Source: Prevotellaceae bacterium
GTDB taxonomy: Bacteria; Bacteroidota; Bacteroidia; Bacteroidales; Bacteroidaceae
DNA length: 64,000 nucleotides
Direction: 5' to 3'
Assembly: GCA_022508665.1 (NCBI GenBank)
Contig: JAFLUT010000002.1
Location: 7,606 to 71,605, forward strand
Shown here: positions 15,876 through 48,679 of the stretch, piece after piece
Position numbering within the stretch: position 1 is the first letter of the stretch
Layout of the letters: every line of letters begins with the position of its first letter
The notes under the pieces: generated by a model
Databases searched by the model: none
The model's input: the letters and a program-made list of their open reading frames with translations, nothing else
Told to the model about the DNA's origin: nothing
Made by a program: the position numbers and the translations under genes

Positions 15876-15883
15876 CAAAGTTA
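15876..15883 (-). promoter_or_regulatory. -7 box TAACTTTG (with -33 TTTTGTAGTGT) for the C10 protease
   Basis: The reverse strand reads TTTTGTAGTGTCGGGGAAAAAACGTAACTTTG about 55 nt upstream of the ATG. Confidence 0.55.
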
Positions 15884-15940
15884 CGTTTTTTCCCCGACAC
15901 TACAAAACATTTCAATACATTTTTTCCACACTTGCAAAAA

Positions 15941-16131
15941 AGTGGAGGGGTGGAACATCTCCGTTGCAGCGTTGCAGTTGTTGCAGTTAAAAAATGCAGT
16001 GCAACAAAAGTCAAAGAGAATTTTTATATTATATAATTATATAATATAAATCTATTTATAGGTATTATTATGATGTTTGAGGCGTTGCAAACAACTGCAA
16101 CAACTGCAACGCTGCAACGCCACCCCCACCG
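15941..16131. repeat. palindromic intergenic element A: 27-bp perfect inverted repeat around a 104-bp AT-rich core
   Basis: CGTTGCAGCGTTGCAGTTGTTGCAGTT at 15962-15988 has its exact reverse complement at 16093-16119. The flanking boxes GTGGAGGGGTGG and CCACCCCCACC are also complementary. Confidence 0.9.
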
Positions 16132-16159: not shown

Positions 16160-16274
16160 GGGGACTCTTCAACGCAAATGCGGCAGACTGCATAACGTAA
16201 TTATGGTAGACCGCATAACGTAATTATGGCAGACCGTGCAACGCAATTGTACACAGCCCGCCATGCAACAAAAC
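16160..16274. repeat. direct-repeat array A, 5 units phased at 23 bp
   Basis: The units are GGGGACTCTTCAACGCAAATGCG, GCAGACTGCATAACGTAATTATG, GTAGACCGCATAACGTAATTATG, GCAGACCGTGCAACGCAATTGTA and CACAGCCCGCCATGCAACAAAAC. Confidence 0.85.
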
Positions 16275-22219: not shown

Positions 22220-22489
22220 CTACAATTTAGTGATTTTCGATGCACGTCCCTTTCCGCCAGTGATTTGGCTGATTGCGGCATCAATGATAGCCTTTGTGTT
22301 TGCGTCGATGCTCTCCACGGCCTTAGCCACAGGAGCCGCCTTCTTTGCCACCGTCTCTTCTGGCGCCCACTTGTTCACCGCCCAGATGAGGAGTTTGCCG
22401 AGGTTAATCACGATGAGCAGCACGAGGAACACCGTAACCATACCGACAGCGAGGAGCTGTAATGCTCCGTAAATGTCATTTGTTATCAT
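22220..22489 (-). CDS. oadG: OadG-family decarboxylase gamma subunit
   Basis: 89-aa ORF with a single N-terminal TM (LLAVGMVTVFLVLLIV) and an Ala/Lys-rich tail. It occupies the first position of the oadGAB order. Confidence 0.75.
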   Translation of the reverse strand: MITNDIYGALQLLAVGMVTVFLVLLIVINLGKLLIWAVNKWAPEETVAKKAAPVAKAVESIDANTKAIIDAAISQITGGKGRASKITKL

Positions 22490-22530: not shown

Positions 22531-22538
22531 CAAAGATA
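22531..22538 (-). promoter_or_regulatory. -7 box TATCTTTG for oadGAB
   Basis: Reverse-strand TAnnTTTG match about 42 nt upstream of the oadG ATG. Confidence 0.5.
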
Positions 22539-22625
22539 CGGAGAAAATCTCACATATCAAATAATATGCAGTACGTTTTTTGTAAATAGGTGGAAAAAGA
22601 TGATTTTGGTAAGGAAGGGGTTTCG

Positions 22626-23042
22626 CTATTTGTTATCTGTTATCTGTTATTTGTTGCATTTGTTACCAACTCACAAATGCGTGCATACGCTGAAAACACT
22701 GGGCTTGCGTGTGTTTTTGGGTATCTTTCGGCAACAGATAACAGATAACAAATAGAATTTTTCGATGTGGAGGGATGCGGCGATTTTGGGGAGGAGAAAA
22801 AGACGAAAAAGGAGGGTAAAAAAATAAGTTTGTATTATATTATAATAATTAATTATTATAATATAATACAAAAATTTGTTGTCTTTTATTTTCTGCGTCA
22901 AATTGCAAAAACCTATTTGTTATCTGTTATCTGTTGCCAACCGCATACAAAATTCGCCGCAAGCCCAGTGTTTTCAGCGTATGCGCCACATTCCGCATCG
23001 GTAACAAATACATTTGTTGCCAGTTTGTTGCAGGTGATTTGC
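22626..23042. repeat. composite palindromic intergenic element B (nested perfect inverted repeats, GTTATCT microsatellite arms)
   Basis: The 23-mer CTATTTGTTATCTGTTATCTGTT occurs at 22626-22648 and 22913-22935, and inverted at 22733-22755. There is a 26-bp perfect IR (22730-22755 with 22913-22938) and a 27-bp perfect IR (22683-22709 with 22958-22984). Both IR pairs are centred near 22834. Confidence 0.9.
22829..22872. repeat. 44-nt perfect A/T-only palindrome
   Basis: TTTGTATTATATTATAATAATTAATTATTATAATATAATACAAA is self-complementary. Confidence 0.95.
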
Positions 23043-23075
23043 AGGGCGCGTTTTGCACGAAAGCACAGCAAACAT

Positions 23076-23190
23076 ACCTTGCTGCGACAAACAGCGGAGC
23101 GATGAAGCGATAAACGGCGTGGCGATGTTACGATGAACGGTGCAGCGGTATGGCGATGAACGGCAATTACGGCATGCGGTTCACGGCAAA
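23076..23190. repeat. direct-repeat array B, 5 units phased at 23 bp
   Basis: The cores CGACAAACAG, CGATAAACGG, CGATGAACGG, CGATGAACGG and CGGTTCACGG start at 23085, 23108, 23131, 23154 and 23177. Confidence 0.85.
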
Positions 23191-23235
23191 CAACAGAAAA
23201 TCATCAAAATTGTTTGCAATATGGCTTTTAATCGT

Positions 23236-23243
23236 TATCTTTG
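23236..23243 (+). promoter_or_regulatory. -7 box TATCTTTG for the vapBC-like pair
   Basis: TAnnTTTG match 24 nt upstream of the 23267 ATG. Confidence 0.5.
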
Positions 23244-23916: not shown

Positions 23917-23975
23917 TTCATTGCGTCCACACTGTTTTTCTCTCATTTTTATTTGCCTGTTCAAGAAAAATTTTG

Positions 23976-23983
23976 TAACTTTG
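23976..23983 (+). promoter_or_regulatory. -7 box TAACTTTG for the EIIC gene
   Basis: Exact consensus about 36 nt upstream of the 24019 ATG. Confidence 0.5.
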
Positions 23984-25401: not shown

Positions 25402-25470
25402 ACGTGCATTTGTATATAAGAGGTAACAAATAACAGATAACAAATGCAACAAATAACAGATAACAAACAA
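25399..25470. repeat. third (inverted) copy of the element-B arm
   Basis: The reverse complement reads TTTGTTATCTGTTATTTGTTGCATTTGTTATCTGTTATTTGTTACC...ACAAATGCACG. It shares a 30-nt identical core, GTTATCTGTTATTTGTTGCATTTGTTA, with 22632-22668. Confidence 0.85.
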
Positions 25471-25496
25471 CTCTGACTAATCAACAACAAACAGAT

Positions 25497-26727: not shown

Positions 26728-26982
26728 TTATTTCTTCTTCATTGCTGCGTAGCGGCTCATGAACTTGTCCACGCGACCTGCTGTGTCCACAAGTTTTGCC
26801 TTGCCCGTGTAGAATGGGTGAGAAGTTGAAGAAATTTCAATCTTGATGAGTGGATACTCCTGTCCTTCGAACTCGATTGTTTCGTTAGACTTCGCTGTTG
26901 AGCGAGAAAGGAACACATCGCCGTTTGACATATCCTTGAATACAACAGGACGATAGTTCTCTGGGTGAATGCCTTGTTTCAT
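26728..26982 (-). CDS. rpmE2: 50S ribosomal protein L31, type B (no CxxC zinc ribbon)
   Basis: [15 protein letters not shown]...HPFYTGK. There are no cysteines. Confidence 0.93.
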
Positions 26983-27199: not shown

Positions 27200-27214
27200 T
27201 CGGTGATTAAGGAT

Positions 27215-27306
27215 AGCCGTGTATCGAACAATCGGAAAGCGGTGTGTCGAAACAGCGATAAGCCGTGTGTCGATGTTGCGATGAGCGGTGTTTCGTAATG
27301 CGGCAG
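27215..27306. repeat. direct-repeat array F, 4 units phased at 23 bp
   Basis: The units are AGCCGTGTATCGAACAATCGGAA, AGCGGTGTGTCGAAACAGCGATA, AGCCGTGTGTCGATGTTGCGATG and AGCGGTGTTTCGTAATGCGGCAG. Confidence 0.9.
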
Positions 27307-29744: not shown

Positions 29745-29830
29745 GGCTGTCCATGCCCCTTCCTTTCCAACAACCACACCAATGGCCCACCACCGCCTGT
29801 TGCCCTATTCAGCCGCACGCATCCTTAAAA

Positions 29831-29914
29831 TATAACTTATATTTTATAAAATCAAACTTAAATTTATATAAATATAACCTATATTTTATAAAACATAAGT
29901 TATGTTTTAATAAA
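29831..29914. repeat. AT-rich direct-repeat array P, 4 units of 21 bp (or 2 of 42 bp)
   Basis: The units are TATAACTTATATTTTATAAAA, TCAAACTTAAATTTATATAAA, TATAACCTATATTTTATAAAA and CATAAGTTATGTTTTAATAAA. Unit 1 and the segment 29884-29904 (units 3/4 junction) also form an inverted pair. Confidence 0.85.
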
Positions 29915-29916
29915 AA

Positions 29917-29943
29917 ATACGGCTGAGCATCGCCCAGCCGTAT
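29917..29943 (-). terminator. intrinsic terminator after pepT
   Basis: The reverse strand reads ATACGGCTGGGCG-ATG-CTCAGCCGTAT followed by TTTTTTATT. Confidence 0.7.
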
Positions 29944-29961
29944 AATTAGACATTATTCCTT

Positions 29962-47126: not shown

Positions 47127-47338
47127 AAATGAAACAGCGATGACCCTCTGTCGTCATCGCCAACCTTTCTCCTCTCAATCGCACAACCGCACACATCCCC
47201 AAAACGCCACTTTTATGCCTCATAAGTCGCAACCGCCGGCACAGATAATCTGCATTGGCTGACTATTATAATCTGTCACGGCTGACTATTGTAATCGTGA
47301 ACGGCAGGGCATTTCAGCGGTCAGCCGTTGTCTTTTTG
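47127..47338 (+). ncRNA. candidate small RNA (unclassified) containing array N
   Basis: The orphan promoter at 47113-47120 is followed by a 5' hairpin (GCGATGAC/GTCATCGC, 47137-47160). A 3' helix ACGGCTGAC/GTCAGCCGT is then followed by TGTCTTTTT at 47329-47337. No ORF. Confidence 0.25.
47240..47331. repeat. direct-repeat array N, 4 units phased at 23 bp
   Basis: The units are CACAGATAATCTGCATTGGCTGA, CTATTATAATCTGTCACGGCTGA, CTATTGTAATCGTGAACGGCAGG and GCATTTCAGCGGTCAGCCGTTGT. Confidence 0.85.
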
Positions 47339-48612: not shown

Positions 48613-48679
48613 GCAAGAAATCGCACTAAAAAAATGCATTTTTTATTAGCAACTGCATTTTTTTAGTGCGATTTCTTGC
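48613..48679. repeat. 26-bp perfect inverted repeat with 15-nt loop
   Basis: GCAAGAAATCGCACTAAAAAAATGCA at 48613-48638 has its exact reverse complement at 48654-48679. Confidence 0.95.

Follow-up and report, generated by a model that had tools for sequence, protein, structure and literature searches.

Element B is an intergenic sequence of ~400 bp (~22626-23042) between the divergent oadGAB and vapBC-like genes of an uncultured Bacteroidaceae lineage, and it raises the question of what kind of element it is and whether it acts on its neighbours. All coordinates are positions in the window, i.e. the whole 64-kb stretch of DNA analysed; contigs from relatives are numbered L0xx. We find that B is a mosaic of three recurring modules: tandem heptads paired in inverted orientation, an A/T-only perfect palindromic core and tandem repeats with a period of ~23 nt. 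At this locus, we observe complementary blocks at a fixed spacing, a symmetric change of the core, the coincidence of the edges of B with breakpoints and the replacement of B at the same site by an unrelated element. Judged from its sequence, B appears to be a compound member of a lineage-restricted and apparently undescribed class of mosaic palindromic intergenic repeats. We assign a probability of roughly one half to the reading that B is a mosaic palindromic repeat element that acts, if at all, as structure-prone DNA. A function of B as a switch, an RNA or an operator is not supported.

A preliminary description of B had reported two perfect inverted repeats and a repeated 23-mer, all of which we recovered. 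The 23-mer CTATTTGTTATCTGTTATCTGTT is present in three exact copies, two in direct orientation (22626-22648 and 22913-22935) and one inverted (22733-22755), where shuffled sequences lead to an expectation of 0. The 26-bp inverted repeat (22730-22755 and 22913-22938) and the 27-bp inverted repeat (22683-22709 and 22958-22984) are exact, with arms separated by 157 bp and 248 bp, respectively; for either motif, shuffles lead to an expectation of 0. The symmetry centre that the two pairs were said to share lies at 22834 for the 26-bp pair and at 22833.5 for the 27-bp pair. A fourth co-centred block, which had been overlooked, is formed by ATTTGTTACC at 22658-22667 and GGTAACAAAT at 23000-23009 (centre 22833.5; 10 bp). 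The GTTATCT arms are present as period-7 arrays. Array 1 (plus strand, 22626-22655; CTATTTG, TTATCTG, TTATCTG, TTATTTG and further units) forms the left edge of B; array 2 is inverted (minus strand), makes up the left 26-bp block and could pair with array 1 or with array 3, which makes up the right 26-bp block on the plus strand. To the right of the outer 10-bp block follow remnants of GTTGCAG-like heptads (TTTGTTGCCAGTTTGTTGCAGGTGATTTGCAGG; plus strand, 23013-23050) and degenerate tandem repeats with a 23-nt period (plus strand, 23084-23175), which form the right edge.

Also overlooked was a perfect 44-bp palindrome consisting of 95% A/T at 22829-22872. It is located between a purine/A-rich spacer of 73 nt (22756-22828, plus strand) and a pyrimidine/T-rich spacer of 40 nt (22873-22912, plus strand), and its centre, at 22850.5, is displaced by 16.5 bp from that of the other inverted-repeat pairs. 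Perfect palindromes with arms of at least 11 are found at only two places in the 64 kb, i.e. in the core of B and in the centre of a second element, element A (16023-16050), while 28 of 30 dinucleotide shuffles of the window contained none.

The blocks of the two arms of B are separated by spacers of equal or nearly equal length (15/15 and 20/19 nt). The sequence between the perfect blocks had been described as diverged, and its similarity is indeed close to random: in a position-by-position comparison, 5 of 15 positions match between the two 15-nt spacers, and ~10 of 20 match between the 20- and 19-nt spacers. Overall, the arms are 68% identical, and ~50% identical outside the perfect blocks. 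Taken alone, the left arm (22626-22755) forms a palindrome whose stem is 23 bp long, and it is inverted relative to the right arm (22913-23012). As single-stranded DNA, B is predicted to fold with -101 kcal/mol compared to -47 +/- 5 for shuffles (z = -10.7). In total, we conclude that a ~130-bp unit, in which a 27-nt block lies between two heptad arrays, is present twice in B, in inverted orientation around an A/T core. Because uniform neutral divergence of a duplicated arm fails to explain the pattern of blocks and spacers, we infer, with fair support, that the blocks are under constraint or undergo templated homogenisation.

The preliminary description had linked B to element A (15944-16130), and the link turned out to be stronger than claimed. 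In element A, GTTGCAG-type repeats, the heptad type of the remnants at the right end of B, make up a 27-bp perfect inverted repeat (15962-15988 and 16093-16119, 104 nt apart); a 28-bp A/T core (16023-16050) and 23-nt repeats (16182-16248) are present as well. Apart from a symmetric G/A and C/T change and one central base, its core is the same as that of B in L003, and the A/T cores of the two elements are homologous. The motif TTGTTGCA, by which the link had originally been made, is a weaker argument: seven of its nine window matches lie in element A, in B or in the array at 25445; nine matches compare with 5.2 expected, and 5 of 100 shuffles reach nine. Element A is located directly upstream of a peptidase C10 promoter (15876-15906). 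On the minus strand, it would fold into a long hairpin; the foot of this hairpin is GC-rich and precedes UUUUUU, so that element A resembles an intrinsic terminator of lepA.

A third element with the same plan was found at the position of B itself in L037 (ENA ERZ27293322 k141_1059993), a contig of a sister lineage from the same sample as the B-carrying contig L003. L037 and the window are collinear through oadA/oadG, vapBC and EIIC, with 93-95% nucleotide identity; the VapB of L037 matches that of the window in 78 of 84 residues, and the two promoters are the same (91% identical). Between the flank alignments, window positions 22610-23189 are replaced by 636 bp (1823-2458) without detectable homology to B. 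These 636 bp contain five 23-nt tandem repeats, 21-nt tandem repeats and a 25-nt inverted repeat made of GTGACAG heptads, whose arms are 155 nt apart. Their core is A/T-only and quasi-palindromic; the spacer towards oadG is A-rich, and the one towards vapB is shorter, measuring 39-47 nt compared to 40 nt in B and 42 nt in element A. Homologues of the 23-nt repeats of B are present in L037, inverted relative to the flanking genes. Because the flanks have diverged by only ~5-6% while ~580 bp lack homology, the L037 element is a replacement and not a decayed form of B; gradual divergence of B into the L037 element is ruled out by the 93-95% identical flanks.

Elements A, B and the L037 element share a common plan, i.e. 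a heptad-built perfect inverted repeat, an A-rich spacer, an A/T palindromic core and edge repeats of ~23 nt. We scanned ~400 kb of DNA, 134 kb of it from unrelated phyla, for A/T palindromes between the arms of an exact inverted repeat of at least 16 nt; only element A, the variants of B and the L037 element were returned, and the uniqueness implied by the preliminary description is accordingly not upheld. Moreover, the clade has 21 strict heptad arrays, derived from only about five loci that are independent; each of them is partnered by an inverted array within 350 nt, as are all three arrays of B, whereas the single array in the 134 kb of unrelated DNA has no such partner.

Relatives carry simpler forms, namely hairpins with stems of tandem heptads, and the heptads themselves vary by locus. 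In L041, an (AAGTGAA)4...(TTCACTT)4 hairpin is present between adk and obg and again after a gene for a 137-aa protein, i.e. as two homologous copies in one genome. L038 has an AAGTGAA hairpin with a different loop between oadA and oadB, and a hairpin of a different heptad, AACTAAA, between adk and obg. Between oadA and oadB, L003 and L004 have an ACAATTT/AAATAGT hairpin, whereas the window and L002 have only TTAA-TGAT-ATG there. The number of heptads differs between strains (4 facing 4 with a 5-nt interruption, 3/3 and 3/4). Heptad-stem hairpins (L041, 2900-3022 and 7696-7812; L038, 2643-2737 and 7145-7288; L003, 5366-5498) fill stop-to-start gaps within operons, and different heptads are found at orthologous sites.

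The remaining modules recur in the window as well. Tandem repeats with a 23-nt period are present at four intergenic places (23084-23175, 16182-16248, 27211-27295 and 47245-47305), and the repeats of B are identical in 30 of 37 positions to 27253-27290 (score 44 vs 13.8 +/- 2.5 for shuffles). The array at 27211-27295 lies in the 5' leader of the gene for class II fructose-bisphosphate aldolase (fba); the array at 47245-47305 includes CCGTGACAG, a sequence similar to the heptads of the L037 element. A satellite array of the heptad family of B is located on the minus strand at 25422-25471, 25 nt upstream of the start codon for the KduI-family protein. This array and the left end of B make up a 34-nt inverted repeat (94%) that brackets B, vapBC and the EIIC-GAT gene (2.8 kb).

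These relatives bear on the simplest alternative, namely that B is a one-off inverted duplication in neutral intergenic DNA with no function, relatives or mechanism beyond chance. B is confined to one lineage and its unique blocks have no other copy in the collections searched, as expected for such an event. However, a specific plan is common to A, B and L037 and is found only in this lineage, A and B have homologous cores, and L037 has, at the site of B, an independent element built to this plan; moreover, perfect blocks with near-random spacers are unlike a simple ageing duplication. We disfavour this alternative and regard it as unlikely.

Nine copies of the locus were obtained from contigs whose OadG is the same or almost the same protein. 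L003, L004 and L033 carry B at 92-97% identity, and L010, L034, L006 and L007 carry it in part. The length of the A/T core varies: it is 44 bp in the window, 28 bp in L010, 38 bp in L033, 29 bp in L003 and, with an (AT)n centre, 52 bp in L004. All five cores are perfect or nearly perfect palindromes, with one mismatch in L033. The L010 core corresponds to the window core minus 16 bp located between two ATTATAATA direct repeats. The arms of the L033 core lack AAT and ATT symmetrically, as seen by sequence comparison, and this symmetric loss means that no single contiguous deletion of the window core can yield the L033 core. Array 1 is one heptad longer in the window than in L004, L010, L006 and L007. 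Among the parts of B, the 73-nt spacer has the highest number of substitutions in L033 (8 of 72).

The left 26-bp block is invariant in every strain aligned across it, and the right 27-bp block is invariant among the strains compared. The left 27-mer, by contrast, carries three clustered, uncompensated substitutions in L003, L033 and L034, and between strains the perfect blocks were not seen to be better conserved than the spacers. The earlier proposal that selection or gene conversion acts on specific blocks is borne out only in part: the perfect blocks, their fixed spacing and the near-random spacers speak for it, while the substituted left 27-mer and the lack of extra conservation of the blocks between strains speak against it.

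The preliminary description had also implied that segments of B invert. If the 26-bp and 27-bp pairs were the targets of an invertase, they would constitute nested invertons with segments of 157 bp and 248 bp that make the flanking operons phase-variable. Perfect inverted repeats with unrelated spacers resemble inversion sites, and repeat length and segment size fit the invertible promoters of Bacteroidales; both segments also lie within the 100-700 bp expected of an inverton. Four contigs with B (L006, L007, L010 and L034) end at or near an inverted-repeat block, and the left spacer of L007 is closer to the reverse complement of the right spacer of the window (score 7.5) than to the left spacer of the window (score 3.0). 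However, only 14 of 20 positions of the L007 spacer are identical to the right-arm spacer, so it is not an exact flip, and B has the same orientation in all five assemblies spanning its interior (window, L003, L004, L010 and L033). Moreover, B contains no match to a Bacteroidetes-type promoter, its interior is palindromic, so that inversion would change little, and no recombinase gene was found among the window proteins scanned in the 64 kb. Inversion as the function of B is very unlikely on these grounds.

The genes on both sides of B vary between strains. Between the oadG promoter and B, there are no genes in the window, L003 and L033, a nucleotidyltransferase/HEPN pair in L004 and L010 (truncated in L008), and an acetyltransferase gene preceded by a small open reading frame (ORF) in L006 and L007. 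To the right of B, the window has vapBC; L003 has vapBC, DUF3791/DUF3990 and a gene for an 83-aa protein; L033 has DUF3791/DUF3990 alone; and L004 has nothing. The breakpoints adjoin B, i.e. they lie at heptad array 1 (22620-22635) for the gain or loss of left-hand cassettes and at the end of the 23-nt repeats (~23157-23168) for the gain or loss of vapBC. The left junctions differ (22604 in L007 vs 22620 in L004) and have no common core. With at least five arrangements, the oadG-EIIC intergenic region is a hotspot of small toxin-antitoxin-like gene pairs. L005 encodes an identical OadG protein, although its promoter region is only 87% identical; here, oadG and the EIIC-GAT gene are ~230 bp apart and neither B nor cassettes are present. 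The KduI-side heptad array is also missing from L005, where the gap between EIIC and KduI is 18 nt. Because L005 lacks both, we conclude that B and the cassettes were added in this lineage.

The cassettes are located at 993-1732 in L004, 337-1067 in L007, 831-2461 in L003, 32-687 in L033 and 1-575 in L008, and a deletion between two direct repeats of 9 bp (GGCAATCAG) has truncated the HEPN gene of L008. A conserved stretch of ~85 nt (CACAAAGAAACAATG...TTATTCGTGCC) is present to the left of B beside both types of left cassette, i.e. in L004 (e.g. 872-955), L010, L006 and L007; this stretch and the left cassettes are both missing from the window, L003, L033 and L034. B as a part of the vapBC cassette was rejected, as vapB homologues occur in three other contexts without such an element.

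The cassettes could suggest that B is a recombination platform, i.e. the attachment site of an integron-like system encoded elsewhere that inserts toxin-antitoxin cassettes. In agreement with this idea, at least five arrangements of toxin-antitoxin-like pairs surround an otherwise constant element, breakpoints lie at its edges, and structure is kept while sequence varies among A, B and L037, as in attC sites. However, there is one element per locus and not one per cassette, the cassettes face outward on both sides and have their own promoters, the junctions lie at different positions, the GTTATCT heptad does not fit the attC core GTTRRRY, the L008 variant is a plain deletion, and no integrase was found in the window. 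An integron-like platform is, on balance, a very improbable explanation.

B is located between two divergent promoters and upstream of both, as the promoter matches flank B and none lies within it. The Bacteroidetes promoter pattern TTTG-N17-23-TAnnTTTG has 17 matches in the window vs 1.7 expected, approximately one before each operon, and 0 of the 17 are inside 22626-23042. The oadG promoter (TTTG...TAtcTTTG; minus strand, 22531-22561) and a vapB-like promoter (plus strand, 23213-23243) bound B and lie outside it; the EIIC match is at 23952-23983. The distance of B from the -7 box of oadG, previously given as ~90 bp, is 88 nt. As claimed earlier, B is flanked by oadGAB and a PIN-domain pair, both confirmed by Pfam: oadG (22220-22489), oadA and oadB follow on the minus strand to the left, while an 84-aa protein and a PIN-domain protein (VapBC-like), an EIIC-GAT permease and a KduI-family protein are encoded on the plus strand to the right. 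The only ORF called on B (75 aa, across the left arm) matched nothing but itself among 5.8 billion proteins. B carries no coding signal, and it is probably not transcribed from a canonical promoter.

These observations bear on the possibility that one or both strands of B act as a long hairpin RNA, i.e. as an RNase III substrate, small RNA precursor, terminator or insulator. The predicted hairpin is strong, the heptad-stem hairpins of the relatives are inside operons and hence transcribed, and the minus-strand hairpin of element A with its UUUUUU looks like a lepA terminator; indeed, an RNA role is plausible for the simple intra-operon hairpins and for element A. B, however, lies upstream of both flanking promoters without an internal promoter match, no U-tract follows its outer stems, and a terminator scan gave only a minor 9-bp stem. 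Nothing in Rfam 15 matched B at the gathering threshold; the matches below it are to generic miRNA-hairpin models at 31.9 vs 180 bits and 22.6 vs 211 bits, as expected of any long hairpin. For B itself, an RNA function is highly improbable.

Alternatively, the 26-, 27- and 10-bp blocks could be operators for a dimeric or oligomeric protein, e.g. a nucleoid protein or an antitoxin, that co-regulates the oadGAB and toxin-antitoxin promoters, with the A/T core as a bend or cruciform. Such a cis-regulatory platform would account for the equal spacing of the blocks (15/15 and 20/19 nt) despite near-random spacers, for the location between divergent promoters (65 nt from the -33 motif of oadG and ~170 nt from that of vapB) and for the inner blocks being invariant in all strains aligned across them. 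However, the element is wholly absent from L005, three strains have a mutated left 27-mer, no such element accompanies the vapBC homologues found in other genomic contexts, and L037 has the same two promoters (91% identical) with entirely different blocks. Because in L037 the promoters are kept while all blocks have changed, a conserved regulator-operator pair for oadG is unlikely, and operators in general seem an unlikely basis for the structure of B.

Finally, B could be the remnant of a replication or transfer origin of an integrated plasmid or phage, i.e. iterons with an A/T-rich region. Direct repeats of ~23 nt do lie beside an A/T-rich palindrome flanked by inverted repeats. However, no rep, relaxase or mobile-element genes were found in the neighbourhood, which consists of housekeeping genes, and a 23-nt repeat of the same family lies in the 5' leader of fba. 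DnaA-box-like 9-mers (TTATCCACA, at most one mismatch) occur 37 times in the window vs 16 +/- 3.5 expected, with runs on the same strand, and none lies within 22626-23042. In blastn searches, the similarity to 72,556 plasmids was limited to chance heptad matches, in Providencia and Shewanella plasmids, and 50,697 phage records yielded nothing. We disfavour an origin remnant and consider it barely credible.

Domains of transposases, integrases or invertases were not detected among the ~50 window proteins scanned against Pfam, whose matches are all to housekeeping, capsule-synthesis or uncharacterised (DUF) families. Two other palindromic regions were noted: at 29809-29945, between convergent genes, A/T-rich 21-nt repeats (4.4 copies) form a quasi-palindrome that is followed by a GC-rich hairpin cggctgagcatcgcccagccg, and at 48613-48679, between genes for an AAA_14 ATPase and a DUF6169 protein, two 29-nt arms (97% complementary) form an inverted repeat around a loop of 9 nt. 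A 228-kb ENA contig (k141_1522982) matches the window at 100% and ends at window position 26775, so that the window stems from another assembly.

How could a structure-prone element give rise to the observed variation? B most likely acts at the level of DNA structure. Its arms would pair within one strand, forming a hairpin on single-stranded replicating DNA or a cruciform, the latter driven by negative supercoiling, as is expected in the wake of two diverging RNA polymerases. According to the twin-domain model, the region between diverging polymerases is negatively supercoiled, and A/T-only palindromes extrude easily; for these two reasons, a cruciform is plausible here. The paired blocks and the core may be kept symmetric by templated repair, template switching or mismatch correction, a process known as quasipalindrome correction. 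Repeat slippage would change the heptad copy number, (AT)n and the length of the core, while hairpin-provoked breaks or repeat-mediated illegitimate recombination would lead to cassette turnover at the outer tandem repeats. An effect of B on the oadG or vapB promoters can only be inferred, and a dedicated benefit of B for the host may not exist.

A more far-reaching version, which we regard as doubtful, is that the architecture and not the sequence has been generated or selected in A, B and L037, the architecture comprising an A/T-only perfect core, stems of heptad repeats and an asymmetric A-rich spacer, with unrelated sequences of the same plan replacing one another at a single fixed site of the chromosome and a cruciform hub that would insulate the two promoters and act as an integrase-free hotspot for the exchange of toxin-antitoxin or defence cassettes.

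Several points weigh against the reading of B as a mosaic palindromic repeat element acting as structure-prone DNA. The perfect blocks are, on the strains compared, no better kept than the spacers and the left 27-mer is imperfect in three strains, so that the blocks may not be undergoing homogenisation or selection. A second copy of the unique blocks of B (27-mer) was not found, and B may not belong to a dispersed mobile family, as only its modules recur; moreover, our view of this genome is limited to 64 kb. The independent loci of the class are few, i.e. about five heptad hairpins in addition to A, B and L037, and many contigs repeat one locus. Cassette turnover may also reflect a permissive divergent intergenic region in which B has no causal role.

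A search for the 23- and 27-mers elsewhere, as proposed in the preliminary description, gave no copy of element B beyond this locus in relatives, and within the 64-kb window the 27-mer is confined to B. The scans of genome collections and metagenomes used words from the 27-bp block of B. An exact 18-mer of the 27-bp block had 18 single matches in 185,579 GTDB representative genomes, which belong to unrelated phyla and compare with ~17 expected by chance; none of the 18 genomes contains B. A 20-mer had two matches in the JGI metagenomes, both attributable to chance, and the 23-mer, the 27-mer and the core arm had 0 exact matches in IMG/VR. In the full-text literature searched, also with literal heptad strings, no heptad-stem hairpins in Bacteroidales are described, subscription journals being outside the coverage. 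The earlier statement that no such element had been described holds for the sequence and the exact plan, for which Rfam, GTDB, JGI, IMG/VR, plasmids, phages and the searchable literature gave no match. Conceptually it does not hold, as elements of this kind are known as bacterial interspersed mosaic elements (BIME) and REPIN, MITEs (miniature transposable elements with inverted repeats), BrickBuilt and heptamer-repeat arrays.

The nearest concepts to B are already well known, and its interest lies in the host and the locus. Work on REP (repetitive extragenic palindromic), BIME, REPIN, Correia and ERIC sequences has dealt mainly with Proteobacteria, where these sequences affect supercoiling, the stability of transcripts and the rearrangement of genomes. 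For gut and rumen Bacteroidaceae, which are among the most abundant bacteria of animals, almost nothing comparable has been described beyond the MITEs of Porphyromonas gingivalis. The locus amounts to a natural experiment in which one site shows two unrelated elements of the same plan in lineages with 93-95% identical flanks, a symmetric core change and at least five cassette arrangements. If the structural reading is true, B would provide a handle on hairpin-prone DNA as a hotspot of gene content and on recurrent tandem-heptad stems; if it is wrong, B would still be a strain marker and explain the contig breaks of this lineage here.

Among elements of Bacteroidales, BrickBuilt, a MITE of P. 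gingivalis with 19 conserved copies per genome, leader and tail segments and IS5-like terminal repeats GAGACCTTTGCA (PMC4596501), is the first to compare with B. Like B, it has a Bacteroidales host, is strictly intergenic, contains a 23-nt tandem minisatellite and varies between strains, and its copies sometimes adjoin peptidase C10 genes, as element A does. The 23-nt repeats were compared by their period, the BrickBuilt unit being published only as a logo (PMC4596501). In contrast to B, a large palindrome, heptad stems and an A/T core are not described for BrickBuilt in that report (PMC4596501). Membership in BrickBuilt was rejected: GAGACCTTTGCA (at most two mismatches) has three matches in the window vs 6.5 expected, none of them near B. 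Moreover, no direct repeat flanks B as a target-site duplication, and a comparison of filled and empty alleles of the oadA-oadB hairpin shows TGAT replaced without a clean duplication.

Cyanobacterial short tandemly repeated repetitive (STRR) sequences are intergenic heptamer tandem repeats. TAACTGA heptamer repeats are intergenic direct repeats in Beggiatoaceae, Cyanobacteria and some Bacteroidetes, with only 1 inverted set among 170 in the Maribeggiatoa genome (PMC4679880). Such arrays resemble B in being intergenic 7-nt tandems that often abut start codons (compare the KduI-side array) and in their sporadic distribution, which includes Bacteroidetes. In the clade of B, unlike among the TAACTGA arrays, every strict array is paired with an inverted one into a stem, and the heptad varies by locus.

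The invertible promoters of Bacteroidales, reportedly described by Krinos in 2001, Coyne in 2003 and Jiang in 2019, share with B perfect inverted repeats of ~20-30 bp around 100-250 bp in a promoter region. B differs from them in its lack of an internal promoter, its single orientation in five assemblies, its palindromic interior and the lack of an invertase found nearby. Integron attC sites are 55-141 bp long, carry the R and L core boxes RYYYAAC and GTTRRRY and are recombined by IntI. As in attC, the palindromic structure of B is conserved while the sequence is not, and toxin-antitoxin cassettes adjoin; unlike attC, B is ~400 bp long, serves as one site for several cassettes of divergent orientation and has neither R and L core boxes nor IntI.

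Human palindromic AT-rich repeats (PATRRs) are a further precedent, and in bacteria, long palindromes and quasipalindromes are processed by SbcCD and corrected via template switching. Like B, PATRRs contain an A/T-only palindrome with a centre of varying length and symmetric arms at a site of structural rearrangement, and they may be the best analogue for the possible behaviour of the B core. PATRRs are, however, hundreds of bp long and eukaryotic.

BIME mosaics of REP sequences as well as REPINs and their RAYT transposases are found in Enterobacteria and Pseudomonas, where structural roles in supercoiling, termination and mRNA stability have been proposed (PMC3333891, PMC3116915, PMC3337134). 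The foot of a REP palindrome has a conserved GTAG or CGTC tetranucleotide (PMC3733652). B differs from REP in that the ends of its 23-, 26- and 27-nt stems have neither GTAG nor CGTC, its stems consist of tandem heptads, its sequence is locus-specific without a high-copy consensus, its core is an A/T-only perfect palindrome and its host is a member of the Bacteroidaceae; likewise, no Y1-transposase/RAYT domain was found in the scanned window proteins, and in the 64 kb the 27-mer is present only in B. In their build, however, REPINs and BIMEs are intergenic, non-coding palindromic units in alternating orientation with linkers, as is B, and in a REPIN two inverted palindromic units yield a long hairpin, as would the arms of B, each of which is a palindrome with a 23-bp stem. 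Altogether, B lacks features that define each of the named families and belongs to none of them, and it is not categorically new; by analogy, it stands closest to BIME and REPIN, both in build and in possible behaviour, as a hairpin doublet of palindromic units.

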